The notes under the pieces: generated by a model | Seen by the model: only the letters and a program-made list of their open reading frames with translations | Databases searched by the model: none | Told to the model about the DNA's origin: nothing | In this document: piece after piece, positions 11,134-39,387 of the stretch | Position numbering within the stretch: the first letter of the stretch is position 1 | How the letters are laid out: every line of letters begins with the position of its first letter | Source of the DNA: Escherichia phage vB_Eco_SLUR29 | Length of the DNA: 48,466 nt | Sequence record: NC_054895.1 | Strand: one strand, 5' to 3' | Translations under genes and position numbers: made by a program

Positions 11134-11354
11134 GTCAGGACGGTTTTTTTGAGCGCCTTCAAATGGCAGAAGATGCCGGGCTAAATAAAGAGTCGGCGCT
11201 TGAAGTGGCATATAAAATTAAGACTCTTGATGAGGCTTTAGGTGATATGGATATGGATCTTGAATCAAGCGCAATATTTGCAGATCCCACTATGATTGTT
11301 AATGATTGTGGATGCGATTTCGATCCTGGTTGTGCGCGCTGTTTTCCGTTTTGA
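11130..11354 (+). CDS. hypothetical protein with C-terminal Cys cluster (CGCDFDPGCARC)
   Basis: 74-aa ORF. Confidence 0.5.
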   Translation: MSQDGFFERLQMAEDAGLNKESALEVAYKIKTLDEALGDMDMDLESSAIFADPTMIVNDCGCDFDPGCARCFPF

Positions 11355-11358
11355 GGTA

Positions 11359-12075
11359 ATGACGATGTATAAAGGTTTAATATTCTCCCTATTTGATGGA
11401 TCTGGTAAAGCCGTTAAAGATTGGGCTGATAATGGCTATAAGTGCATTTGCTTTAATGCTGACGGCGGCGATCACGGTGATTACCAGTCAGTGCGCATAC
11501 AGCATGAGAATATCGAATACGTTAACGTCTGGATTGATGAAAGATTTTACCACCGCGCGCGCTGGGAGGAATGGGGCATTCCTGACTTTATTATGGCATT
11601 TCCGCCGTGCACTGACCTTGCAAATAGCGGATCTCGCCATTGGGCCAAAAAACGCCTTGAGAATCCATCTTTCCAGGATGAGGCCGCCGACACTTGCAGG
11701 ATCGCGGCTGATATAGCTGATTATTTCGGTGTTCCTTACATGATCGAAAATCCGGTTGGCAAGTTGTCAACGTTATGGCGAAAGCCTGATTATACGTTCC
11801 ATCCGTGCGATTACGCTGGCTATCTGCCGGAAGATGATAAACATCCCGACTTCCCTGATATTATTCCGGCGCGGGATCGCTATTTTAAGAAAACATGCCT
11901 CTGGACTGGCAACGGCTTTGTTATTCCTCCACGCGCTTTAATCCTGCCGAAAGAGAAAGACAAAGATAATCCAGGCTGGGCCAAAACTGGCGGCAAGTCA
12001 TCGCGCACAAAGATGATCCGCTCCCTCACTCCGCGCGGCTTTGCTCGCGCCGTCTTTGAGTCAAACTCAAAATAG
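11359..12075 (+). CDS. DNA (cytosine-5)-methyltransferase-like
   Basis: motif I FSLFDGSG, PPC catalytic-Cys motif (FPPCTDL), ENP/ENV-like motif (MIENPVGK); TAG stop lies inside next 19-mer element. Confidence 0.65.
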   Translation: MTMYKGLIFSLFDGSGKAVKDWADNGYKCICFNADGGDHGDYQSVRIQHENIEYVNVWIDERFYHRARWEEWGIPDFIMAFPPCTDLANSGSRHWAKKRLENPSFQDEAADTCRIAADIADYFGVPYMIENPVGKLSTLWRKPDYTFHPCDYAGYLPEDDKHPDFPDIIPARDRYFKKTCLWTGNGFVIPPRALILPKEKDKDNPGWAKTGGKSSRTKMIRSLTPRGFARAVFESNSK

Positions 12076-12090
12076 CACTTTTTGTTAAAA
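12072..12090 (+). promoter_or_regulatory. conserved 19-bp early element, copy 4, with stem-loop GCCAGGT/ACCTGGC
   Basis: exact 19-mer containing stop codon of upstream gene; TGGCATAAT 22 nt after TTGTTA. Confidence 0.6.
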
Positions 12091-12144
12091 GCCAGGTGTA
12101 AAAACCTGGCATAATCACATCGAACAAACAAAGGAGATCTGATC

Positions 12145-12531
12145 ATGAATGTTATCTGTAATGAAACCAACGTATTGATGAAAGGCCGATTTAAAACGGT
12201 TTATCAGAAGATTGCAGGAAGTAATGATGTGATCGAGGTGGAAGAATTCCAGGTTAAGACGCTTGTTAAGGGTAGCCGCTGGCTTCCAGCAAACCGAGAT
12301 GATTACCGCGTCATTAACACAAAAACCGTTCTTTGCAAGTTTGTAGATCATAACATGCCGTGCAAAAAGCACTTTAAGCAGGGAAAGCGATACCAGATCG
12401 AGAAAGGGCGACCGCTTGGAAGCGTTGCGGGTTATGTTTTTGATGAGTGCGGCGACCGCTGGAACCTGTACCGTGAAGAGGTCGGATTCTCTGCTGGCGG
12501 CTGTTATCTTTTTGAGGGTAAATATCTGTGA
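12145..12531 (+). CDS. hypothetical protein (128 aa)
   Basis: strong SD AAAGGAG. Confidence 0.55.
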   Translation: MNVICNETNVLMKGRFKTVYQKIAGSNDVIEVEEFQVKTLVKGSRWLPANRDDYRVINTKTVLCKFVDHNMPCKKHFKQGKRYQIEKGRPLGSVAGYVFDECGDRWNLYREEVGFSAGGCYLFEGKYL

Positions 12532-12749
12532 TAAACAGTGAAAACCGTTACAAAGTAACGAATTCTACCACAAAGACTTTCAAGCCTGGCGATATAGTCA
12601 GGCCCATCAAAAAAACGGCGGTAGGTTGGCTGATTGGTTTTTCATATCATAAGGCTCTTTACTTTACGTTTAAGGATGGGATCATGGGGGAATGCTATAG
12701 CGACCGCCATCCTGATCGACTTCTGGTTGCAATAGAGCGGATCAAATAG
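12528..12749 (+). CDS. hypothetical protein (73 aa, probable GTG start)
   Basis: GTGA overlap with upstream stop; TAG stop inside next 19-mer. Confidence 0.45.
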   Translation: MINSENRYKVTNSTTKTFKPGDIVRPIKKTAVGWLIGFSYHKALYFTFKDGIMGECYSDRHPDRLLVAIERIK

Positions 12750-12764
12750 CACTTTTTGACAAAA
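12746..12764 (+). promoter_or_regulatory. conserved early element, copy 5 (TTGACA variant), with stem-loop GGGCCGT/ACGGCCC
   Basis: ATAGCACTTTTTGACAAAA; TAAAAT in loop; precedes P-loop NTPase gene. Confidence 0.6.
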
Positions 12765-12817
12765 CGGGGTAGTATTGGGCCGTTAAAATTTACGGCCCAC
12801 AAAGGAGAAGCTAACGA

Positions 12818-14398
12818 ATGTTTTCATTAGAAACGAACAAATTAACTCCACAGCAAATAATCGCTATGGCTGAAAGCCAGAACCTTTCACCAGTTCGCGT
12901 ATCAATTCAGGCTAACGGCTATCGCCAGTCGTCCAGCTTTTGGGGCGACGTAAAGGATGTGAATAGCGGTCACGATCGCTACCCCGTTATTTCTCTTGGT
13001 AATGATATTGATGTTGTCGGCAAGTTATCACGCAGCATTGCGCGATCCGTTCAATTCCCTGAATCATCGGCTTACATGCACTTTATCGGCTGCATTTCTG
13101 CCGCTATGCTTGGACGCTTTACGGTTGACTATCACGGAACCGATCAGCCGACTGCGCTTTACGTCGTTACAAGCCAGCCGCCGTCAACTGGTAAATCTGC
13201 GATCAACAGCATGGCTATTGCTCCGATGATTGCGGAAGTTGAGAAGATCAACGAGCAACGCCGCAAGGAAAGAAAGAAAATACAGGCAAAGCTGGCAGGT
13301 CTTGCAAAGGAGATGAAAAGCGAAAGATCCGGCGCTGATATGGAATCTCTATACCAGGAAAAAGAGGATCTGGAGGAAAAGCTGGAAAAAATGTGTGATA
13401 TAACTTTTCCTGTTTCAGATACAACTCCAGAAGGCTTGGCGAAAATCAACAACAAGCAAGGTAACTTTGCCGTAATTTCTGATGAAGCAACAAGTATTAA
13501 CAGTCTGTTAGGTTTGACCTATGCAAATAGCGAAAGGAAGACTAACAGTGAGTTAGTGCTTAAGGCGTGGGATAATGGTCACGTATCAATTGCCCGTGCT
13601 AATGCTGACAATAATATGAGTTTTCGCGCGCTTGGATGTATGAGCGTTATAGCCCAGGATGAAACGATAAGCGGAATCATGGACGCTGGATCGCGAGGCA
13701 TCGGTGTTAGTGAGCGTTTTTTGTTGGTCCGCGAGGAATCATTCTTAGGCCGTCGCTCATTCATTGATGAAAATGGTGATTCTACCTATGAGGCGGTGGA
13801 TTCTGAATTGAAAGCCCAATATTATCAATTGGTGCATAACATCATGAGCGAATCAAATATATCGCTGAAAATAAGCCGTTCAGCTATGCGAGTGCTCAAC
13901 ATTGCTCGCCAGGATATGGAACCGCATCTTGCAGACGGCGGAAAGTATTCTCATACAATGTTACGCGGTGCGCTTGGTAAAATGGATAAACAGGTGATCA
14001 GGCTTGCTTCCGTCCTGCATGTTATCCGTAACTGGTTTAATCCTGCCGGATACCCGCAGAAGTCGAAAGAGATCGACGTGGAAACAATGCAAGAGGCGTT
14101 GATCATGTTTCAGGAATTGAGCAAAACATACATTAGCGCCGCCAATGCTTCTGGTTATGCTGGTGATGATGCTGAAATGGGTAAATTGATTGAATTGATC
14201 ACGAGGCACGGCAAGGCTAACAAAGGGATCCTGAATATTCGCGCCCTGTACGAATCAGCGAGAAAGGTAAAACCTTTCGTTGGTCAGGCTGGCGTAATGA
14301 AAAGGATAGAAGGGCACTTACTGCCAATGCTGGAAGAAAGAAATTATGTTTGTGTGATTAATGGTGTTATTTTTGTCAATCCAATACTGCTGGGATGA
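12818..14398 (+). CDS. P-loop NTPase of unknown function (526 aa)
   Basis: Walker A-like PPSTGKSA and Walker B-like FAVISDEA; strong SD; function not assignable by eye. Confidence 0.7.
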   Translation: MFSLETNKLTPQQIIAMAESQNLSPVRVSIQANGYRQSSSFWGDVKDVNSGHDRYPVISLGNDIDVVGKLSRSIARSVQFPESSAYMHFIGCISAAMLGRFTVDYHGTDQPTALYVVTSQPPSTGKSAINSMAIAPMIAEVEKINEQRRKERKKIQAKLAGLAKEMKSERSGADMESLYQEKEDLEEKLEKMCDITFPVSDTTPEGLAKINNKQGNFAVISDEATSINSLLGLTYANSERKTNSELVLKAWDNGHVSIARANADNNMSFRALGCMSVIAQDETISGIMDAGSRGIGVSERFLLVREESFLGRRSFIDENGDSTYEAVDSELKAQYYQLVHNIMSESNISLKISRSAMRVLNIARQDMEPHLADGGKYSHTMLRGALGKMDKQVIRLASVLHVIRNWFNPAGYPQKSKEIDVETMQEALIMFQELSKTYISAANASGYAGDDAEMGKLIELITRHGKANKGILNIRALYESARKVKPFVGQAGVMKRIEGHLLPMLEERNYVCVINGVIFVNPILLG

Positions 14399-14790
14399 TT
14401 ATGTTTTTGCTTGATCTGTATAAATGGTGTGAGTCATACGATTGGTTTAACAGGCAGCACATAGCCAAATTTATCTATCAGCATAGAGAATGTGAGCGGC
14501 TCGCACGGGCCGCCGGACTTACGCCGCGAATGTTCGCCAGCCTTGCATCTAAGGAATTTTGCGCAAGAATGATGACGGCTGGTTATATAGATGGAGTCTG
14601 CGGAAAATACTGGTCCAAAGGATCGTCAAAGCGGCCTTTCGGATTCGAATTGTATAGCCTGGATGGTATGCGCAACGACTGGATCAGGGATATGGCTAGA
14701 ATAGGGGAGATGGGCGATGATGAATTGTTCCAGGCAAAAGCTAATAGACAAGATCTTGAAGCACTGCGCCGTAAATTCAATCTCACATGA
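14395..14790 (+). CDS. hypothetical protein (131 aa)
   Basis: ATGA coupling to upstream NTPase gene. Confidence 0.5.
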   Translation: MIMFLLDLYKWCESYDWFNRQHIAKFIYQHRECERLARAAGLTPRMFASLASKEFCARMMTAGYIDGVCGKYWSKGSSKRPFGFELYSLDGMRNDWIRDMARIGEMGDDELFQAKANRQDLEALRRKFNLT

Positions 14791-14911
14791 GGATTTTATT
14801 CATGCTTTACTTACGCTACTTTATTCAGATATGCGCGCTTTTAGCACCACTGAACATGTTTTATGCAATGATGATGGTGTATTACTGGTTACGGTAAAGC
14901 GTATGGAATAG
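14717..14911 (+). CDS. possible overlapping small ORF (64 aa)
   Basis: GGGGAGA SD 6 nt before ATG; TAG stop is the TAG of the next 19-mer element, as for other cassette-terminal genes. Confidence 0.3.
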   Translation: MMNCSRQKLIDKILKHCAVNSISHEDFIHALLTLLYSDMRAFSTTEHVLCNDDGVLLVTVKRME

Positions 14912-14926
14912 CATTTTTTGTTAAAA
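14908..14926 (+). promoter_or_regulatory. conserved early element, copy 6 (ATAGCATTTTTTGTTAAAA), stem-loop CCCGGC/GTCGGG
   Basis: near-exact 19-mer; TATATT after hairpin; CATCGAAACGAAAC leader; inverted duplicate of copy at 18151..18169. Confidence 0.6.
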
Positions 14927-14988
14927 CGCCCGGCCTAGTGTCGGGTATATTTGTTTCATCGAAACGAAACAACCAAAAAGGAAAAATT

Positions 14989-15213
14989 ATGTCCAGCAAG
15001 TTTTTAGTAGTTCGCGTATACAATCATGCAAATGGATCTTCTTCTGAAATCCCGACAGTTTACGATAAGGATTCAGGCTGGAGTGAGCAATCGGCGGTTG
15101 AAAATGAGCGCAAGATTGCAGGACTATACGGCGACACTTGCAGCATTGAAGTAAGGAAGTACGACGAATCGAACAAGCCAACAAACGAAAGCCATATGTG
15201 GCCCGACGCATAA
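14989..15213 (+). CDS. hypothetical protein (74 aa, MSSKFLVV...)
   Basis: ATG at 14989 after A-rich leader. Confidence 0.5.
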   Translation: MSSKFLVVRVYNHANGSSSEIPTVYDKDSGWSEQSAVENERKIAGLYGDTCSIEVRKYDESNKPTNESHMWPDA

Positions 15214-15245
15214 AAATAAAGGAGGCGTTAAGCCTCCTTTTTCTT
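15214..15245. terminator. bidirectional intrinsic terminator between convergent operons
   Basis: hairpin GGAGGC-GTTA-AGCCTCC flanked by A-run and T-run. Confidence 0.6.
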
Positions 15246-15623
15246 TTCTATCCAGTAAAGACAAATCAGCACAAGAAACACAACCACGCATATGATTACT
15301 GGATCGTACCATCTCCCGTTATTACGCTGCACGACCTGAATTTTGTCTGCCTTGATGGTATTGGCCTGAATGGTTGATGTTGTGAAATCCTTCTTGCTGG
15401 ACGTGTCCACCTTGTCAACCGCAGATTCCTTTATTGTGGTTTCCTGTTTTGTGCTGGCGTCCTGCCTTGCTGTAATGCCAACTGTCTGCTTCACGTTCTC
15501 CGCGCCAGCCTGCGCTGTGATTTCCGGCTTACTGCCGATTAATCCGGTCAGTGGCGTAACGCTTGAACATCCAGACAAGATCACCGCCATTGCGATTGGT
15601 GTAAGTAAAAATTTCTTCATCAT
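15228..15623 (-). CDS. unimolecular spanin-like lysis protein
   Basis: N-terminal lipoprotein signal (LSGCSS) plus C-terminal TM helix ([16 protein letters not shown]); last gene of lysis cassette. Confidence 0.55.
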
Positions 15624-16111
15624 TTAAGATCCATTGTGCAATATTTGTATTCGACCTTGCGCCTGTTAAGCAAGCCTTTAGACTTCTCTCGCTTTCCTGT
15701 TTTTGGGTTATGGTAATAAGTCCAACGATAAAGCTGATCGCAAGCCTCGTTTAATTTCCCCTGGTTGATGAGTTTCAGCATTGTTGAATTTCTGAAAGCT
15801 CCCACACCTGCATTATAAGTGAATGAGTACATGGCTGCACGCATACTATCGGGAATGTCAACCTTAACTTGCTTGTCAACTTCTTTTTTAGCAACCTGGA
15901 TATGTTTAGCCAACAAAGCATCACACTCTTTTTTAGTGTACGTTTTCCCCAGGATAACATCGGGTCCGGTGATTCCTGCGCAAACCGTCCATACTCCCGC
16001 AATATCTTTGTATGGCTTGTATCTTACCCCTTCGATCTCTTCAAGAAGTGGAGAAGTCAAGGCAACCGCAACGCCAAAGGCCGCCGCCGCTACCCTGTTC
16101 TTTATGCTCAT
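15620..16111 (-). CDS. SAR endolysin (GH24 lysozyme)
   Basis: Gly/Ala-rich N-terminal signal-anchor-release segment; catalytic E-8-D-5-T triad ([16 protein letters not shown]). Confidence 0.8.
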
Positions 16112-16326
16112 TACTTGCCCCTGATCTCAATAGCTTTTTGAATATCACCTTTTTCGATCGCCTCGTGGAATTTTTTACTATCACGCCAGCGAAGGTAAGC
16201 GCCCCACGCACCGAATGCAGCCATTAAAACAAAACTGGCAATAGCAATGGTTAACTGCCCTGTAGCGGCGCTTGCGATAGATGAACCGCCAGATCCGGCG
16301 GTAGCTGCGTTAATAAAATCTTTCAT
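16111..16326 (-). CDS. holin (pinholin-like, two TMDs)
   Basis: 71-aa protein with two hydrophobic segments and charged C-terminus; ATGA coupling to endolysin. Confidence 0.6.
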
Positions 16327-16471
16327 TTTTATTCTCCATATTAATTAAAGTCAATATATTGACCGCATGATAAACGCACATGGTAAAAAATTAAACAAAA
16401 AAAAGAGGCGACAAACGCCGCCCCCTTGCAAGTTTTTGATTTAATTTGTCATTGATTTAAATAAAAATTCA

Positions 16472-17587
16472 TCAATTCATCATTTCTGGATAGTGAACAA
16501 ATCGCCCCACTTCTCCATGCTCTTTGTCGTAAATGATAACCGCCGCACGGCGTCGAGATCTCCAGCCACCTCGCGCGGCGTATGCGTCTTTTGCAGCCAG
16601 GGTGCTATGCACCTCAACGATGCCAAGCGACGTTTCTGTCACGGTCTGGTGATGCCAGTGCCCTACGTGCGCATACATCGTTTTTGAGTTTCCGAAGTCC
16701 TCCCGCCAATCTGACGCGCACATCATTAGCAAAGTCTCCGGTTTACGCACTGTGTGCCCGTGATGGTACGCAAGGAAAGTTTTTCCGTATTGCGTGTGGT
16801 GCACAACGCGAGGGGAAACATCAACGTAAACGCGCGGCTCGTTTTCATATGCTGCCGCCATTGCTGCGCGTAGCCAAATCATTCCTGATTGGTCATGATT
16901 GCCCTCTACGATCTGGACTTCAACATGTTTATGCTTTAACAACATTTTATTGATTGCGCGTCGCATTGCACGGATGGCAACGTAAACCAATTTTGCATAT
17001 CGACTATCTTGATCCAGTACGTGACCGCTTGCAGGTGTAACCGCCTCCAGGCCGTCGCTATGCAGCATATCGCCACCAATCAGGATGACAGCCTTTTCGC
17101 TATCCGGTGCGCACATTAAAGCATAGTCGATAAAGTTATTCATAACGCGCTCTGCCGTGGCAGTATCCCAATTTTCGCCGCATTCGTGCTTATGGGCCAT
17201 AGCGCCTAAGTGCATGTCAAAGATCGGATACAAGGAAAGCGTTTCGTTATAGTCGCGCTCCTGTAATGGGACCGGATCTAATCGCGGAACTTCCTCGCTA
17301 AATGCCTCCATTGCTGCGCGCATTAATGCTTCTAATTGCTCTTTATCCTTGCTGGTTTTAGTCCACTTTAGGATTATGTTGCCTTCTTTGTCAGTCATTA
17401 CTGACTCACCATGAACGCCAAAACCAGGCGCTCCAATGGTGGATACCTGGCCTTGCTTTGCAAGACGCGCCGCGCGACGCTCGACGCTTCTCACATTCAT
17501 TCCGTACTCTTGAGCGATCTGTTTATATGTCTTACCAGCCGCCCGTTCGATCTTGAATTGCTCATCTGTAATTTTTACATTTTTCAT
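16472..17587 (-). CDS. calcineurin-like metallophosphoesterase with N-terminal HTH domain
   Basis: motifs DMHLG, GGDMLHSDG, GNHD, GHWHH; N-terminal HTH-like KTYKQIAQEYGMNVRSVERRAARLAKQ; start taken at internal ATG 17587. Confidence 0.65.
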   Translation of the reverse strand: MKNVKITDEQFKIERAAGKTYKQIAQEYGMNVRSVERRAARLAKQGQVSTIGAPGFGVHGESVMTDKEGNIILKWTKTSKDKEQLEALMRAAMEAFSEEVPRLDPVPLQERDYNETLSLYPIFDMHLGAMAHKHECGENWDTATAERVMNNFIDYALMCAPDSEKAVILIGGDMLHSDGLEAVTPASGHVLDQDSRYAKLVYVAIRAMRRAINKMLLKHKHVEVQIVEGNHDQSGMIWLRAAMAAAYENEPRVYVDVSPRVVHHTQYGKTFLAYHHGHTVRKPETLLMMCASDWREDFGNSKTMYAHVGHWHHQTVTETSLGIVEVHSTLAAKDAYAARGGWRSRRRAAVIIYDKEHGEVGRFVHYPEMMN

Positions 17588-17681
17588 TCTGCTACCTATC
17601 TCATCACTATATGGTACATAACTGTAACAGCGATGATAACGGGTAACGGTAGAACAAACAAGCGCCACATGATAACTATCC

Positions 17682-17924
17682 TCATTTATAATATTTGCGA
17701 GGCTCTCGGATTTTAGCCATTGCCTCTTTGAAATCAATTTTTGTTGGAACTGCTGGAACTCTTACCATTTTTCGCGGCCTTTCCTTGAGGAAAGTCATCT
17801 TGTCGCCGCTAATTATGCTCACATCTGCAATATCAAAGTATTGCGCGATCTTCTTTATGTCGTCGGCAATACCGCATTCTTTAGCGTGATTCCATACCGC
17901 ATCTCTTCCTTGCTCAACCTTCAT
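17682..17924 (-). CDS. hypothetical protein (80 aa, MKVEQGRD...)
   Basis: ORF; GAGGAGG upstream; overlaps stop of preceding small ORF. Confidence 0.45.
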   Translation of the reverse strand: MKVEQGRDAVWNHAKECGIADDIKKIAQYFDIADVSIISGDKMTFLKERPRKMVRVPAVPTKIDFKEAMAKIREPRKYYK

Positions 17925-18093
17925 GCTTATAATATGCCTCCTCTTGTTCAATTGGTGCGTGACCGTATGCAACTTTCAGTAAAAACATTGCGATCTCCCA
18001 ATCAAACTGGAATCCTTCCTTTGAACCGCCATCCACTGAACCTTTTGCCACCTCTTGAGCAAGATTAAAAGCGCGTTTATCGAATACTACCAT
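17914..18093 (-). CDS. small hypothetical protein (59 aa, MVVFDKRAFN...)
   Basis: GAGGA SD; first ORF downstream of 19-mer element at 18151. Confidence 0.4.
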   Translation of the reverse strand: MVVFDKRAFNLAQEVAKGSVDGGSKEGFQFDWEIAMFLLKVAYGHAPIEQEEAYYKHEG

Positions 18094-18150
18094 TTTTATT
18101 TCCTCATGTTTGTTTCGTTGAAATAATTATGCCCGACACTAGGCCGGGCG

Positions 18151-18169
18151 TTTTAACAAAAAGTGCTAT
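18151..18169 (-). promoter_or_regulatory. conserved early element, minus-strand copy; inverted duplicate of copy 6
   Basis: reverse complement is ATAGCACTTTTTGTTAAAA followed by identical hairpin CGCCCGGCCTAGTGTCGGG and CATAAT; contains TAG stop of gene 18166..18405. Confidence 0.6.
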
Positions 18170-18405
18170 TTGATCGCTGAATCGTAAAATTCTTGCAGGT
18201 CTTTAGCAATTATTTCATGCCATTTTTCAAGAGGATGTTTTCTAGTTTCCTCAAAACTCATATCCAGGCAGCCGGAAAACTCCCACAAATCGCAATCAAT
18301 ATATGGCTTAACGAACGAATTTTTTTCCATACAGTCGCACACCATAGCGCGATATAAAAGAAATTCGCCATCCTCATTAAGTAAAACGCTTCTCTCTTTT
18401 TCCAT
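18166..18405 (-). CDS. hypothetical protein (80 aa, MEKERSVLL...)
   Basis: GGAG SD; immediately downstream of Dam gene. Confidence 0.45.
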   Translation of the reverse strand: MEKERSVLLNEDGEFLLYRAMVCDCMEKNSFVKPYIDCDLWEFSGCLDMSFEETRKHPLEKWHEIIAKDLQEFYDSAIK

Positions 18406-18409
18406 CGTA

Positions 18410-19135
18410 TTAACTCCGTTTGCGTGCTCGGCGTTCGGTAACAGAAGGACAAATATCGCTGATCTTAACGTATCGCGTTTTCTGCTCTTCGCCTTCTTTA
18501 AGTTTACGCATGACAAAAATCACGCTCCCCTTATTGTTGCCCTGTACAGGCTCGCCAGTCAATCCAGACACAAAGGCGATTCTTCCGGTGCGGGAATATT
18601 CCACTCCCCCCTCTTCGTAAACCTCGCCAGTGATCCAGATGATTTCAGCCGCGTTTTTCTGCGCCTCATAAAACCATGCTGTAGAGTTGTCGGATGGCAA
18701 CAAAACATCAATTTGGTTGTTGTGCTCCATTTGCTCAATTGCTTTCTTGATAAATGGAGTTGGGTTGCTGTACGGCGGGTTAAGCCATACGTGCTTGTTG
18801 CTACCCCACCAACGCTTTAAGCAGTTTGTTTCCTTGCTATAGAACTTCTCGCAAACTGCGTTTTCCTGGCTTGCTGCCGCGTCGAGATCGTATTCGCCAA
18901 ATTCTGATTCCATCCACTCCACGATCTCTTGAGGTGTGCTCCACATATCGCGCACAACGTCCGGCGTAGTGCTTCCAGCGTATCGGTTGCCGCTTACCTT
19001 ATAATATTGATTTGGCTTTACTGCCTGGTAATGGCCTCCAGTTGCAAGGGCATTCCCTATAAATGTTTCTCTCTCCAACTGCTCAAAGCTAACGAATGCG
19101 TCATGGGTGTCTTTATCTAAAATATCTTTAGCCAT
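18410..19135 (-). CDS. dam: DNA N6-adenine methyltransferase (Dam-like)
   Basis: NPPY catalytic motif (WLNPPYS); 241 aa; GGAGA SD. Confidence 0.75.
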   Translation of the reverse strand: MAKDILDKDTHDAFVSFEQLERETFIGNALATGGHYQAVKPNQYYKVSGNRYAGSTTPDVVRDMWSTPQEIVEWMESEFGEYDLDAAASQENAVCEKFYSKETNCLKRWWGSNKHVWLNPPYSNPTPFIKKAIEQMEHNNQIDVLLPSDNSTAWFYEAQKNAAEIIWITGEVYEEGGVEYSRTGRIAFVSGLTGEPVQGNNKGSVIFVMRKLKEGEEQKTRYVKISDICPSVTERRARKRS

Positions 19136-19199
19136 TTCATTTCTCCGCTATTAAAAGCTATCTCGTGTTATTGAATTATGGCGCAATCCATCGCGCCAG

Positions 19200-19218
19200 T
19201 TTTAACAAAAAGTGCTAT
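19200..19218 (-). promoter_or_regulatory. conserved early element, minus-strand copy, with stem-loop GGCGC/GCGCC
   Basis: reverse complement exact 19-mer followed by hairpin and CATAAT; contains TAG stop of 19215..19634; precedes Dam. Confidence 0.6.
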
Positions 19219-19634
19219 TTAAGCATGTATTCAATAGCCAACTTAAACTGATTAAATCCGTAGGCGACCGCAGCGAATCCTCCTAAGCTGCGAACTCGAC
19301 GCAAAAAAGCCCTTTGTTCATCGCTGACTGGTGATGCTTTACCATTGCCTGATTTATTCACTCGTTTGATCTCAATCGCTGCAAATGGGTATTTTCCGTT
19401 TAAACCAATCAGGATGATGAAATCGCTTACACCCTTAACCAAGCCGGACTGCTGATCAATCATCGCCGTTGCTTTAGACTTCTCATTCTCGTTTACCGTA
19501 TGCCACGCCAGCAAGTAAGGATGAGTATAAGTCAACCACTGAAAGCTATCTATCTGGTGATTAACTTCCTTTCTAGTGTCGGTTGGATCTCTTTCGTAAA
19601 ACTCAAGATAATCTCCTTTATCAGTTATAGCCAT
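19215..19634 (-). CDS. VRR-NUC-like PD-(D/E)xK nuclease
   Basis: 139 aa; D...E.K signature (GVSDFIIL...AIEIK); adjacent to helicase as is common for VRR-NUC. Confidence 0.55.
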   Translation of the reverse strand: MAITDKGDYLEFYERDPTDTRKEVNHQIDSFQWLTYTHPYLLAWHTVNENEKSKATAMIDQQSGLVKGVSDFIILIGLNGKYPFAAIEIKRVNKSGNGKASPVSDEQRAFLRRVRSLGGFAAVAYGFNQFKLAIEYMLK

Positions 19635-36709: not shown

Positions 36710-39387
36710 CCTCTCTTGCTCATAACAAATTCGTAAACCTCGCCGCCCTGCATACAGGAACGTTTAATCATATCAGTAAAGATCATCTTAACACCAGTTT
36801 CGATGCCCTTCGGATCGTTTCCGTTAGTGATGCTAACATCAATCCCGCCGATGTTAAATTGAGGTGCTCCACCAGTTACAGCGCCACCGCCAGTATAGCC
36901 GGAACTACCAACAACGCCGCCGTTAGCATAGCCTCGCATCATGCGGTACAAGTTTCCTACCCCGATACGCTGCGTCGCCTCCTTCGTCATGACAAATTCA
37001 CCTTTATGGACAATTCCGGCTGGCTCATACTTCCCGCCGTCGCCAGTGTATCCACCGCCAGCAAATCCGCCAATATTCTTAAGCAAGCTCCCCATCGTCC
37101 AGGTTTGACCACCCATCAGGCCAGATAACGCATTAAAGACAACCATTTTCGTAATCATCTGAATAATCATTTTGATGATAGCCGTCGAGAAGTCTTTAAA
37201 GTTTGCCTTGCCAGTAGCGATAAAATTCGCTAATTGGTTTGTAAGGCCGTTTAACGCCTCGCTTGCGATCTGCTGAACATTGCCATAGGCATTGTTTGCA
37301 TCTTCCGCGAACATCTCCCATGCGTTTTTTGCTCCTGCCAACCAGTTGCCTTGAACCTCATCCTGTGTCTGATAATACTGCTTAAGTTTCGCCTCCATTT
37401 GCTGAAAAACTTCATCGCTAACGCTTCCGCCTTGCGCCTCGTAGTCGGTGCGCAGCTTGCGTAACTCTAGCTCACGCTCGATCTGCTTTTCAGTGTAGCC
37501 AAGTTGCTTAAGGCCAAGCACATCAATAGCCGCCTGAGTTTCACGGATAAACTTAATGCTATCTTGCTCCAGCTTGTTTTTGCGCTCCTGTAAAACAATC
37601 TGATCCCCTAGCTCCGCTTTTTGCCTTGCCATTTCAAGAACGGCTTTTTGCTCGTTTAGTAGCGCCTGTTCCGCTCCGGTCAATTTACGCTTGCTCTGCG
37701 CTTCCTCCAGGATCTCGATCTGCTTTTCGATACTCCATAATGATTTACGCTGGCGAGAAATAACATCGTTAACAGTGCGATGCTCTTTAAGCATCTCCAG
37801 TTGCGCTTTTAAAACGTACAACTCTTTATCAAGCTGCTCAGTCGGGCCGCGAACTATTCCACCTTTAGCCTCTTTCTTTTTCTGCTCCTGCTTCTTGATT
37901 TCCTCAAGCTCTTTGCGCCTAAACTCCACGTTTTCAGCCGCGCGCTTTTTCAGTTCTTCATCAGCCGAACGCGCCACATTTTTCTGATCCTCAATAGCTT
38001 TGTTTAAAGCCTCCTGTGCTGCGCGCACTCTGTTTAAGGCCAGGTTTTCTTTGTCGATTCGCTCCGCTCGTTCCGCCATGTCCTTATTCGCATCTTTTAC
38101 GACCTTTCCAATGTCTTCATAAGTGTTAAGTGCAAACTTAAGCATAGGGTTAACATAGCCAAGCTCCTTACCTAACAGGCCGCCGGACGGGGAAGCGTAA
38201 TCACGCTTCGCTTTCAAAACCTCATACCACGAATCGCCCAACTCAAGGACTTTGTTTTTGTGGTTTGCAATTTCGTTATTCAAGCTGACAAAGCTAGACG
38301 CGCCCTTGTACTCGTTGACTTTCTTTTTTGCGTCATCATAAGTCATGCCAACGTCAACCAGTTTTTTAATCGCCTCGCTCGCGCCGTCTTTCGTGGTGAT
38401 GTAAGCCTTTGCAAGATCTTCGGCGCTTTCGCCTGTCTTGTCGGAAAGCTCCTGTATTCCGGTAGCAATCTTTTCGGCAAAATCACCAGTCAAGCCAGTT
38501 GTTTCCTGAACGGTTTTTTTAATTGCCTCAAACTCTGTCTGTGTTTTGTAGGCATTATATGCAGCAATTGCCAGCGTACCGGAAAGCAAGCCAAACGCCA
38601 CGTTTACCGGATTCAGGAAAGATAGCAACGCTTTTAAAGCATTGGATGCGCCACCAAAAGAATCCTTAATCTGTCCGCCCTGCTGGATTGCGACCAACCA
38701 AACAGGCATTCCAGAAGCAAGTGAAGTCACCACGTCTGTGATCTGCATTGGCAATTGCGCCATTGCTTGTTTGTATTGGCCCGTAGAAATTCCAAGTTTT
38801 TGGATCTGCTTTTCCTGCTCTTTCAGCCTTGCGATGTAAGGCGCTGCCTCCTGGCTAACACCAAGCTGTGCCGCTTTCATTTCCAGCAATTCAGACTTGC
38901 TTTTTCCGGCTGCTTCTTCCTGCTCACGCAAAGCCTGGACGAATTTTTTAGCCTCTTCCGCTGCACGCGCTTTGTTCTTTGATTCCTCAAGCGCCGCGCG
39001 GCCTTCCTCCGTCATCGCTTTTTTTGTTGCGATCAGCTTGTTTTGCTGCGTCTCAAGAATTGATCCAAGCTCAAAAAAAGTCTCATCAGGAACAATGCCC
39101 TTTTTCCATAGCGCATCAAGCTGTGTCGCTGCCTTTCGCAGCTTATCCATCTTTGACGCGGTGGGATCAATTGACTCCTGGATTTTCTTAAATTCTGCTT
39201 TCTGGCGCGCCAGTTCTTCGGCAAACTGTTTTGCTTGCTGTCGCGCCACAACCTCAGAATCAACAAATTCATTAACGCTTTTTTTTGCGTCGTCGTTTGC
39301 CTTCTTGAATTGCTGCAATGATTTAACAGCATTGTTGACCTGCGACACGTCAACGCCTAGCGTTAGGCCAGCGTATTTTTCAGCCAT
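36706..39387 (-). CDS. tail tape measure protein
   Basis: 893 aa, long coiled-coil-rich, Gly-rich C-terminus; follows G/G-T chaperone. Confidence 0.85.
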   Translation of the reverse strand: MAEKYAGLTLGVDVSQVNNAVKSLQQFKKANDDAKKSVNEFVDSEVVARQQAKQFAEELARQKAEFKKIQESIDPTASKMDKLRKAATQLDALWKKGIVPDETFFELGSILETQQNKLIATKKAMTEEGRAALEESKNKARAAEEAKKFVQALREQEEAAGKSKSELLEMKAAQLGVSQEAAPYIARLKEQEKQIQKLGISTGQYKQAMAQLPMQITDVVTSLASGMPVWLVAIQQGGQIKDSFGGASNALKALLSFLNPVNVAFGLLSGTLAIAAYNAYKTQTEFEAIKKTVQETTGLTGDFAEKIATGIQELSDKTGESAEDLAKAYITTKDGASEAIKKLVDVGMTYDDAKKKVNEYKGASSFVSLNNEIANHKNKVLELGDSWYEVLKAKRDYASPSGGLLGKELGYVNPMLKFALNTYEDIGKVVKDANKDMAERAERIDKENLALNRVRAAQEALNKAIEDQKNVARSADEELKKRAAENVEFRRKELEEIKKQEQKKKEAKGGIVRGPTEQLDKELYVLKAQLEMLKEHRTVNDVISRQRKSLWSIEKQIEILEEAQSKRKLTGAEQALLNEQKAVLEMARQKAELGDQIVLQERKNKLEQDSIKFIRETQAAIDVLGLKQLGYTEKQIERELELRKLRTDYEAQGGSVSDEVFQQMEAKLKQYYQTQDEVQGNWLAGAKNAWEMFAEDANNAYGNVQQIASEALNGLTNQLANFIATGKANFKDFSTAIIKMIIQMITKMVVFNALSGLMGGQTWTMGSLLKNIGGFAGGGYTGDGGKYEPAGIVHKGEFVMTKEATQRIGVGNLYRMMRGYANGGVVGSSGYTGGGAVTGGAPQFNIGGIDVSITNGNDPKGIETGVKMIFTDMIKRSCMQGGEVYEFVMSKRG

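Follow-up and report, generated by a model that had tools for sequence, protein, structure and literature searches.

The window, a 48,466-nt stretch comprising sequence record NC_054895.1 of Escherichia phage vB_Eco_SLUR29, belongs to a Warwickvirus (Drexlerviridae, T1-like) coliphage with ~99% identity to Escherichia phage tunus. An earlier note, made from the sequence alone, had placed ORFs at 11359-12075 (plus strand) and 18410-19135 (minus strand) and had assigned them to the C5-cytosine and N6-adenine classes, respectively. Both ORFs exist at those coordinates, and both are real DNA methyltransferase genes of the proposed classes, Dam by curated Pfam and NCBIfam cut-offs and the C5 enzyme by motifs, fold and 91% identity to a relative. 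The features discussed below are as follows.

11353..11356, plus strand: Shine-Dalgarno GAGG, 8 nt ahead of the ATG at 11365, read from the sequence.
11365..12075, plus strand: dcm, encoding a Dcm-like C5-cytosine DNA methyltransferase of 236 aa (711 nt with its stop codon); motifs FDGSG (motif I), FPPC (catalytic C82), ENPV (E128), KKTCLW (K175/K176) and a C-terminal IRSLTPRG.
12073..12115, plus strand: promoter-like repeat directly 3' of dcm, serving the next gene at 12145; 18-mer TAGCACTTTTTGTTAAAA at 12073-12090, 19-nt spacer with GC hairpin at 12091-12109, -10-like CATAAT at 12110-12115.
18126..18168, minus strand: promoter-like repeat past the putative dam/ST19-like unit (18-mer at 18151-18168), serving the next gene at 18093.
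18167..18406, minus strand: small ORF, 79 aa, T1 ST19 homologue (phrog_2676; tblastn 47% identity to T1 ST19; RefSeq CDS H1N80_gp75).
18410..19135, minus strand: dam, encoding a Dam-type N6-adenine DNA methyltransferase of 241 aa (PF05869, TIGR01712, NPPY).
19175..19217, minus strand: promoter-like repeat in the gap that separates the VRR-NUC gene from dam, upstream of the latter; 18-mer at 19217-19200, 19-nt hairpin spacer at 19199-19181, CATAAT at 19180-19175.

The Dam protein was matched by Pfam PF05869 (E 1.5e-61, 207.4 bits; cut-off 28.1) and by the NCBIfam equivalog TIGR01712 (phage_N6A_met; E 1.9e-53, 180.4 bits; cut-off 97.05). The NPPY motif read earlier in this ORF was found at residues 119-122, where it constitutes catalytic motif IV, and is also kept in the Dam proteins of phages T1 and KarlJaspers. 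Identity to T1 Dam (M.EcoT1Dam, YP_003925.1) is 66% over 218 aa, with the N-terminal ~23 residues differing between the two, and identity to the KarlJaspers Dam-like protein is 84%. The T1 gene likewise lies after helicase and VRR-NUC genes and before ST19, with the same promoter-like 18-mer upstream. Because dam is syntenic in T1 and the proteins are 66% identical, the gene is ancestral rather than a recent gain. GATC methylation by T1 Dam has been shown with a DpnI/MboI assay, and deletion of T1 dam lowers the burst size by ~40% (PMC10470545). Given the 66% identity to T1 Dam, the target of the enzyme encoded here is almost certainly GATC as well. The ST19-like ORF, which starts 4 nt past the dam stop codon, probably forms one transcription unit with dam.

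The Dcm-like protein and its relatives

The second ATG, at 11365, is a better start for dcm than that at 11359, as it has GAGG 8 nt before it and is the start of most homologues; the phage tunus GenBank and RefSeq records call a longer gene of 774 nt that overlaps the upstream ORF. The C5 motifs noted earlier in this ORF (FDGSG, FPPC and ENPV) are all present and do not vary across 25 aligned homologues with 54-83% identity, which excludes chance matches. The protein also matches phrog_757 at 7.9e-85 and has the C5-MTase fold, its best structural matches being true DNA C5-MTases.

The closest characterised setting is that of the Hanriverviruses K42 and KarlJaspers, a genus distinct from Warwickvirus. 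The KarlJaspers (Bas06) protein bas06_0055, annotated as "Dcm-like C5 cytosine methyltransferase", is 91% identical over 236/236 residues without gaps, the 22 substitutions falling mostly between motifs I and IV. The order of neighbours is also the same as in K42 and KarlJaspers, with a small ORF, dcm, two further small ORFs and a DUF3987 helicase, and K42 dcm shares both the 711-bp length and residues C82, E128, K175 and K176. K42, which has 95.4% identity to KarlJaspers, has been studied experimentally: expression of its Dcm raised 5mC on msDNA by LC-MS, and this 5mC was lost in a C82A/E128A/K175A/K176A quadruple mutant (bioRxiv 10.1101/2023.08.16.553469). K42 Dcm triggers retron Ec86, and the escaper phages lose Dcm, with a point mutation found 9 bp upstream of the dcm start (same source); by position, this site corresponds to the last G of GAGG 11353-11356. 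The C5 call is based on the motifs, the fold and the 91% identity shared with a member of the family that has a close relative making 5mC in vivo.

Pantoea phage AAS23, also of the Drexlerviridae, carries the same pair as ORF34 and ORF52, and by restriction digest its DNA has both Dam and Dcm methylation (PMC8004638). The combination of a Dam-type and a small Dcm-like gene is standard, previously annotated and partly characterised in this phage family, so that the observation is correct but ordinary. The pair is already known from annotations in dozens of near-identical genomes and from discussion in the BASEL paper, and with an experimentally studied close relative for each of the two enzymes, little is new. 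Family membership, motifs and fold are established in this analysis; the specificities and roles of the vB_Eco_SLUR29 copies are predicted from close relatives.

Proposed roles and specificity of the two enzymes

The preferred reading, with a probability of about 0.87, is that the phage encodes solitary Dam and Dcm-like methyltransferases of the normal Tempevirinae/Drexlerviridae set, which methylate replicating phage DNA and protect both motifs. No restriction-enzyme family was matched among the neighbours of dam and dcm, so both methyltransferases are considered orphans; the neighbours are small ORFs of unknown function, the DUF3987 helicase and a VRR-NUC protein that is conserved with the helicase in T1. 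Dam would transfer a methyl group from SAM onto N6 of adenine, and the Dcm-like protein, a minimal 236-aa enzyme with a PC-motif Cys and an ENV-type glutamate, would form 5-methylcytosine, with CCWGG-type sites as the probable target. With expression from the early and replication blocks, the phage enzymes may outpace those of the host in methylating phage DNA during replication, or do so more completely, and methylation would shield the two motifs from enzymes that cut their unmethylated forms. Dam may additionally support efficient progeny production, and Dcm-like activity would be costly through its sensing by retron Ec86 (Eco1). The anti-restriction role of the pair is putative. Phage DNA is predicted to contain m6A at GATC together with 5mC, which bears on cloning, restriction mapping and nanopore basecalling, and the phage is predicted to be sensitive to Ec86/Eco1.

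The palindrome content of the genome bears on this role. Although 24 of the 64 six-base palindromes are absent, avoidance among the 16 four-base palindromes is weakest for GATC (302 sites, O/E 1.03), and CCWGG (119 sites) has an O/E of 0.99 versus 0.28 for CCSGG. The earlier note had proposed broad protection against host restriction; coverage of the two motifs stands, but "broad" is an overstatement, given that most other palindromes are avoided and that Drexlerviridae are mostly restriction-sensitive. In the BASEL study, most members of this family proved very sensitive to restriction-modification (RM) systems, and sensitivity did not track in any simple way with the methyltransferase genes carried.

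It is possible, though somewhat unlikely, that these real methyltransferases serve mainly a purpose other than anti-restriction, either full methylation of fast-replicating phage DNA to the benefit of the phage's replication, recombination or packaging, or avoidance of MutH/mismatch-repair nicking at hemimethylated GATC. Such a benefit is compatible with the preferred reading and not exclusive of it. In the usual laboratory host, both motifs become methylated even without the phage enzymes (GATC and CCWGG are methylated by E. coli K-12 itself), and the absence of a link between methyltransferase genes and RM resistance in BASEL points the same way. T1 without dam has a ~40% lower burst even in a non-restricting host with its own Dam, and T1 DNA is only partly methylated by host Dam (PMC10470545). 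However, the mechanism is so far hypothetical, and the escape of GATC and CCWGG from strong palindrome avoidance is the pattern expected of restriction protection. The CCWGG O/E is also lower in T1, which lacks dcm (0.83), than in two dcm-carrying phages (0.99 and 1.03), a comparison of three genomes only that is no evidence alone.

The sequence preference of the Dcm-like enzyme is a weaker point of the preferred reading of two protective methyltransferases. At 236 aa it is smaller than M.HhaI (327 aa), and E. coli Dcm has 472 aa. Where classical C5-MTases have a large target-recognition domain, only about 35 residues of lower pLDDT lie between KKTCLW and IRSLTPRG, and the QxRxR of motif VIII is not recognisable, with KKTCLW (K175/K176) at that position. 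The CCWGG specificity of K42 Dcm was assumed from E. coli Dcm and msDNA mutants, and the K42 experiments were carried out in dcm+ MG1655, in which host Dcm left the retron untriggered (bioRxiv 10.1101/2023.08.16.553469), so the phage enzyme may differ in site or substrate preference. Because there is almost no target-recognition domain and the K42 orthologue triggered Ec86 where host Dcm did not, it can be tentatively proposed that the minimal enzyme, in distinction from host Dcm, has a different or relaxed specificity or prefers hairpin or single-stranded DNA, but this is judged unlikely.

The promoter-like repeat and the origin of the genes

The 18-mer occurs in 15 copies in the window, against an expectation of 0 in shuffled sequence. 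As had been noted earlier, a copy lies beside each gene: that at 12073-12090 supplies the dcm stop codon with its TAG, and dam has copies on either side on the minus strand, at 19200-19217, 64 nt upstream of its start, and, beyond the ST19-like ORF, at 18151-18168. The repeat sits in front of most of the early genes. Every copy has the orientation of the gene that follows, at least 12 of 15 lie 55-80 nt before a start codon, and a -10-like hexamer follows the 18-mer at a distance of exactly 19 nt (once 18 nt) in 13 of 15. In phage T1 the element is found 11 times; one of these copies precedes dam (the syntenic copy, at 38954-38971), and another occupies the ST6/ST7 junction, at which T1 lacks dcm. 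The repeat behaves as a family-wide regulatory element and not as a cassette border, as is seen from the 15 co-oriented copies and from conservation in T1, including the junction without dcm; the latter copy indicates that the element is older than the dcm gene and independent of it. As a standard sigma-70 promoter, the repeat was missed by a consensus scan with 16-18 nt spacing, its TTGTTA lying 22 nt from the -10-like hexamer. Rfam gave no match within the window, and no paper with the repeat sequence turned up in a full-text literature search. A T-run is absent from most of the repeat hairpins; the T1 record nonetheless annotates them as terminators.

That dam and dcm are recently acquired mobile cassettes bounded by this element, as the earlier note had suggested from the adjoining copies, is very improbable. 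Although a copy does adjoin each gene, the 8-22 kb early region contains about one per 1.5 kb, so that any gene there would be expected to have one beside it, and neither the common orientation and fixed hexamer spacing of the copies, nor their presence in T1 even without dcm, nor the synteny and 66% identity of Dam in T1 fits acquisition with the repeat. In favour of the cassette reading, the dcm-like gene is an accessory gene within the family (T1 has none between its ST6 and ST7 homologues), and it recurs in phages as distinct as Dhillonvirus, Jersey-like, Vequintavirinae and T5-like ones. A patch of some 200 nt within dcm (11541-11736) also has 33 mismatches to the otherwise 99% identical tunus isolate but matches MikeNSara, which shows local recombination; this patch lies inside dcm, away from the repeats. 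The repeats were considered as borders of recombination units and rejected in this role, because mismatches to the nearest relative cluster within dcm and not at the repeats.

Database coverage and chemistry of the Dcm-like family

No family was matched by the Dcm-like protein in Pfam or NCBIfam scans, even at E<=10, and no significant profile match was found to classical C5-MTases (PF00145: E. coli Dcm, M.HhaI, M.HaeIII) or to DNMT3A/B catalytic domains. A PDB sequence search returned weak DNMT3B matches over motifs I-IV (E about 0.05-0.14), in which FDG and PC align in register with DNMT3B motifs I and IV, and a profile built from the 25-sequence alignment brought no gain over the single sequence (E 0.14 versus 0.05). 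As there was no profile-level match, family assignment needed fold comparison and the literature. The cytosine enzyme of AAS23 is similar in this respect, as BLAST finds no conserved domain and HHpred finds C5-MTases (PMC8004638), although genus and host differ from those of vB_Eco_SLUR29. The missing Pfam and NCBIfam matches and the tiny target-recognition region could also suit a C5-MTase fold with other chemistry, such as larger-group transfer (e.g. carboxymethyl hypermodification) or RNA methylation by ORF 11365-12075, but this is very improbable, in view of the 5mC on msDNA with the K42 orthologue and its abolition in the quadruple mutant, the Dcm-methylated behaviour of AAS23 DNA and the best structural matches to true DNA C5-MTases. 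The protein has >2000 homologues of about 227-260 aa. The lack of a Pfam or NCBIfam model for this family of >2000 sequence clusters marks a gap in the databases, as 1496 of 50,697 phage records, or ~3% of sequenced phages, contain a member.

Two methyltransferase genes and their relatives

Both methyltransferase ORFs that the earlier note had recognized from their motifs were recovered, and their assignment to the C5-cytosine and N6-adenine classes was correct. The genes concerned are:

11359-12075, + strand, Dcm-like C5-cytosine methyltransferase (dcm; preferred start 11365, 236 amino acids)
18410-19135, - strand, N6-adenine methyltransferase (dam; 241 amino acids)
19215-19634, - strand, VRR-NUC nuclease gene

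Over the 9.5 kb around both methyltransferase genes, identity is 99.2% with Escherichia phage tunus (OR912983) and 96-98% with many other genomes of Warwickvirus (Drexlerviridae, Tempevirinae). Both ORFs are already annotated in these records, under the names "DNA methyltransferase", "dcm: DNA-cytosine methylase", "dam" or "putative DNA N-6-adenine-methyltransferase"; the finding of two methyltransferases is as a whole already known.

The dam product, in which NPPY occupies residues 119-122, matched Pfam Dam (PF05869, 1.5e-61) and the NCBIfam equivalog TIGR01712 (phage N-6-adenine-methyltransferase, 1.9e-53), both far over the curated cut-offs. It shares 66% identity with Dam of phage T1 and 84% with its Dam-like counterpart in BASEL phage KarlJaspers, and its locus has the same order as in T1 (large helicase, VRR-NUC gene, dam, ST19 homologue). 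Dam homologues were found in 1875 of 50,697 phage records, and dam is ancestral. For T1 Dam (YP_003925.1), GATC methylation was shown by DpnI/MboI digestion of DNA from a dam- host, and deletion of the gene lowered burst size by ~40%, even where the host was Dam+ (PMC10470545). Directly upstream of dam, with the promoter-like element described below alone between them, lies the VRR-NUC (PD-(D/E)XK-type) gene, whose product is 70% identical to T1 ST21; its conservation alongside the helicase makes it probable that this nuclease serves replication or repair and is no restriction partner.

A small Dcm-like enzyme

The C5 motifs FDGSG, FPPC and ENPV were all present in the dcm product and unchanged in an alignment of 25 homologues (54-83% identity). 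No profile search placed the protein in a non-methyltransferase family, the outcome that the earlier note had named as counting against it, and the standard profiles went unmatched too, with no hit in Pfam and NCBIfam scans even at E<=10. It did match phrog_757 "DNA methyltransferase" (7.9e-85). More than 2000 homologues of ~227-260 amino acids were found, the best 120 of which carry no Pfam domain. Clustered at 50% identity the family has 2020 members, and it occurs in 1496 phage records (~3%) spread over very different phage groups; at family level dcm is an accessory gene. Because the family has no Pfam or NCBIfam model, standard pipelines frequently label its members "hypothetical protein".

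Sequence searches of the PDB gave weak matches only (E ~0.05), with FDG and PC aligned to the corresponding motifs of DNMT3B. An AlphaFold2 model (mean pLDDT 86.4) was compared with the PDB using Foldseek, and all of the top 50 matches listed were DNMT3A/3B catalytic domains (best E 6.8e-07). An unusual feature of the protein is its small size: only ~35 residues separate KKTCLW from the C-terminal IRSLTPRG motif, the position at which classical C5 enzymes carry their target-recognition domain.

ATG 11365, which gives a gene of 711 nt, is the better start, as it has GAGG 8 nt upstream and is the start of most homologues. Public records differ in the start chosen (candidate positions 11302, 11359 and 11365): in the GenBank and RefSeq entries of tunus the gene is called at 774 nt, in overlap with the preceding ORF, and in BASEL and the retron paper at 711 nt, with its good ribosome-binding site.

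Experiments on relatives bear on the activity of this protein. The 711-bp dcm of K42, a phage of the Drexlerviridae with 95.4% identity to KarlJaspers (Bas06), triggers retron Ec86; dcm was lost or damaged in all four escaper phages, two of which had a point mutation located 9 bp upstream of its start, and 34 of 35 Ec86-sensitive phages encode Dcm (bioRxiv 10.1101/2023.08.16.553469). In vB_Eco_SLUR29 the base 9 bp upstream of ATG 11365 is the last G of GAGG. Expression of Dcm raised 5mC on msDNA as measured by LC-MS, and a C82A/E128A/K175A/K176A mutant gave no such rise (bioRxiv 10.1101/2023.08.16.553469). All four residues are present in the vB_Eco_SLUR29 protein when numbered from ATG 11365, and its alignment with KarlJaspers bas06_0055 ("Dcm-like C5 cytosine methyltransferase") is gap-free at 91% identity. 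The gene pair recurs in a Pantoea Drexlerviridae phage, whose cytosine enzyme showed no conserved domain by BLAST and resembled C5-MTases by HHpred, and whose DNA was Dam- and Dcm-methylated by digestion (PMC8004638). CCWGG specificity of phage Dcm was assumed from E. coli Dcm, the msDNA mutants being its sole support, and the retron experiments were run in dcm+ MG1655, host Dcm being no trigger of the retron (bioRxiv 10.1101/2023.08.16.553469). On this reading of the published work, the phage enzyme may prefer a site or substrate different from CCWGG.

A repeated promoter-like element

The 18-mer TAGCACTTTTTGTTAAAA has 15 matches in the window against 0 expected.

Positions of TAGCACTTTTTGTTAAAA (18-mer starts/ends)
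4204, 6818, 8182, 8569, 9874, 12073, 12747, 14909
18151, 19200, 21689, 23251, 29285, 40078, 43828

The layout of the copies is constant. The 18-mer often runs directly out of the upstream gene's stop codon and is followed by a spacer of fixed length, 19 nt, usually with a 7-9 bp GC-rich hairpin whose pairing is kept while its sequence varies. A -10-like hexamer (TATAGT, CATAAT, TAAAAT and similar) follows the spacer in 13 of 15 copies, with a ribosome-binding site and start codon ~25-45 nt beyond, and every copy is oriented as its downstream gene. The distance from TTGTTA (TTGACA in one copy) to the hexamer is 22 nt, more than an ordinary sigma-70 promoter allows; the element is most likely a promoter with an unusual geometry. 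Rfam gave no match for it, and a full-text literature search for TAGCACTTTTTGTTAAAA found no paper.

From the repeats beside each gene, the earlier note had proposed cassette acquisition, which the comparison with T1 does not support. T1 has 11 copies, one between its VRR-NUC and dam genes and a degenerate one at the ST6/ST7 junction, and its record annotates the hairpins as terminators. The Dcm-like gene is absent from T1; in vB_Eco_SLUR29 it occupies exactly the interval between the homologues of ST6 and ST7, upstream of the element. The element is therefore present whether or not dcm is; it is a family-wide regulatory signal rather than the border of a cassette. Mismatches to the nearest relative cluster away from the repeats: a short mosaic patch of 200 nt within dcm (11541-11736), which spans the variable segment ahead of the catalytic PC motif, has 33 mismatches to tunus OR912983, a genome otherwise ~99% identical, and agrees with phage MikeNSara.

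Palindrome avoidance

Broad protection against restriction, also suggested in the earlier note, is unsupported, as two enzymes would protect two motifs, probably GATC and CCWGG. Among all 16 four-base palindromes GATC (302 sites, O/E 1.03) is avoided least; CCWGG (119 sites) has an O/E of 0.99, and that of CCSGG is 0.28. Palindromes are avoided very strongly in the whole window, which lacks 24 of the 64 six-base ones, among them TCCGGA, AAGCTT, ATCGAT, GGCGCC and GATATC (0 against 12.6 expected), and such sites total 484 against 776 expected. KarlJaspers is similar, with 21 missing, whereas avoidance is weaker in T1, with 11. The pattern in vB_Eco_SLUR29 fits a division in which GATC and CCWGG are guarded by methylation and everything else by site avoidance.

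The longest inverted repeat in the scanned 9-21 kb region (62 nt, 14907-14968 / 18109-18170, 90% complementary) consists of two facing promoter-like elements, each with the same hairpin, and flanks a 3.1-kb block with the lysis cassette and the exonuclease gene. In the region of this block, at 15218-15240, is a two-way terminator-like hairpin.
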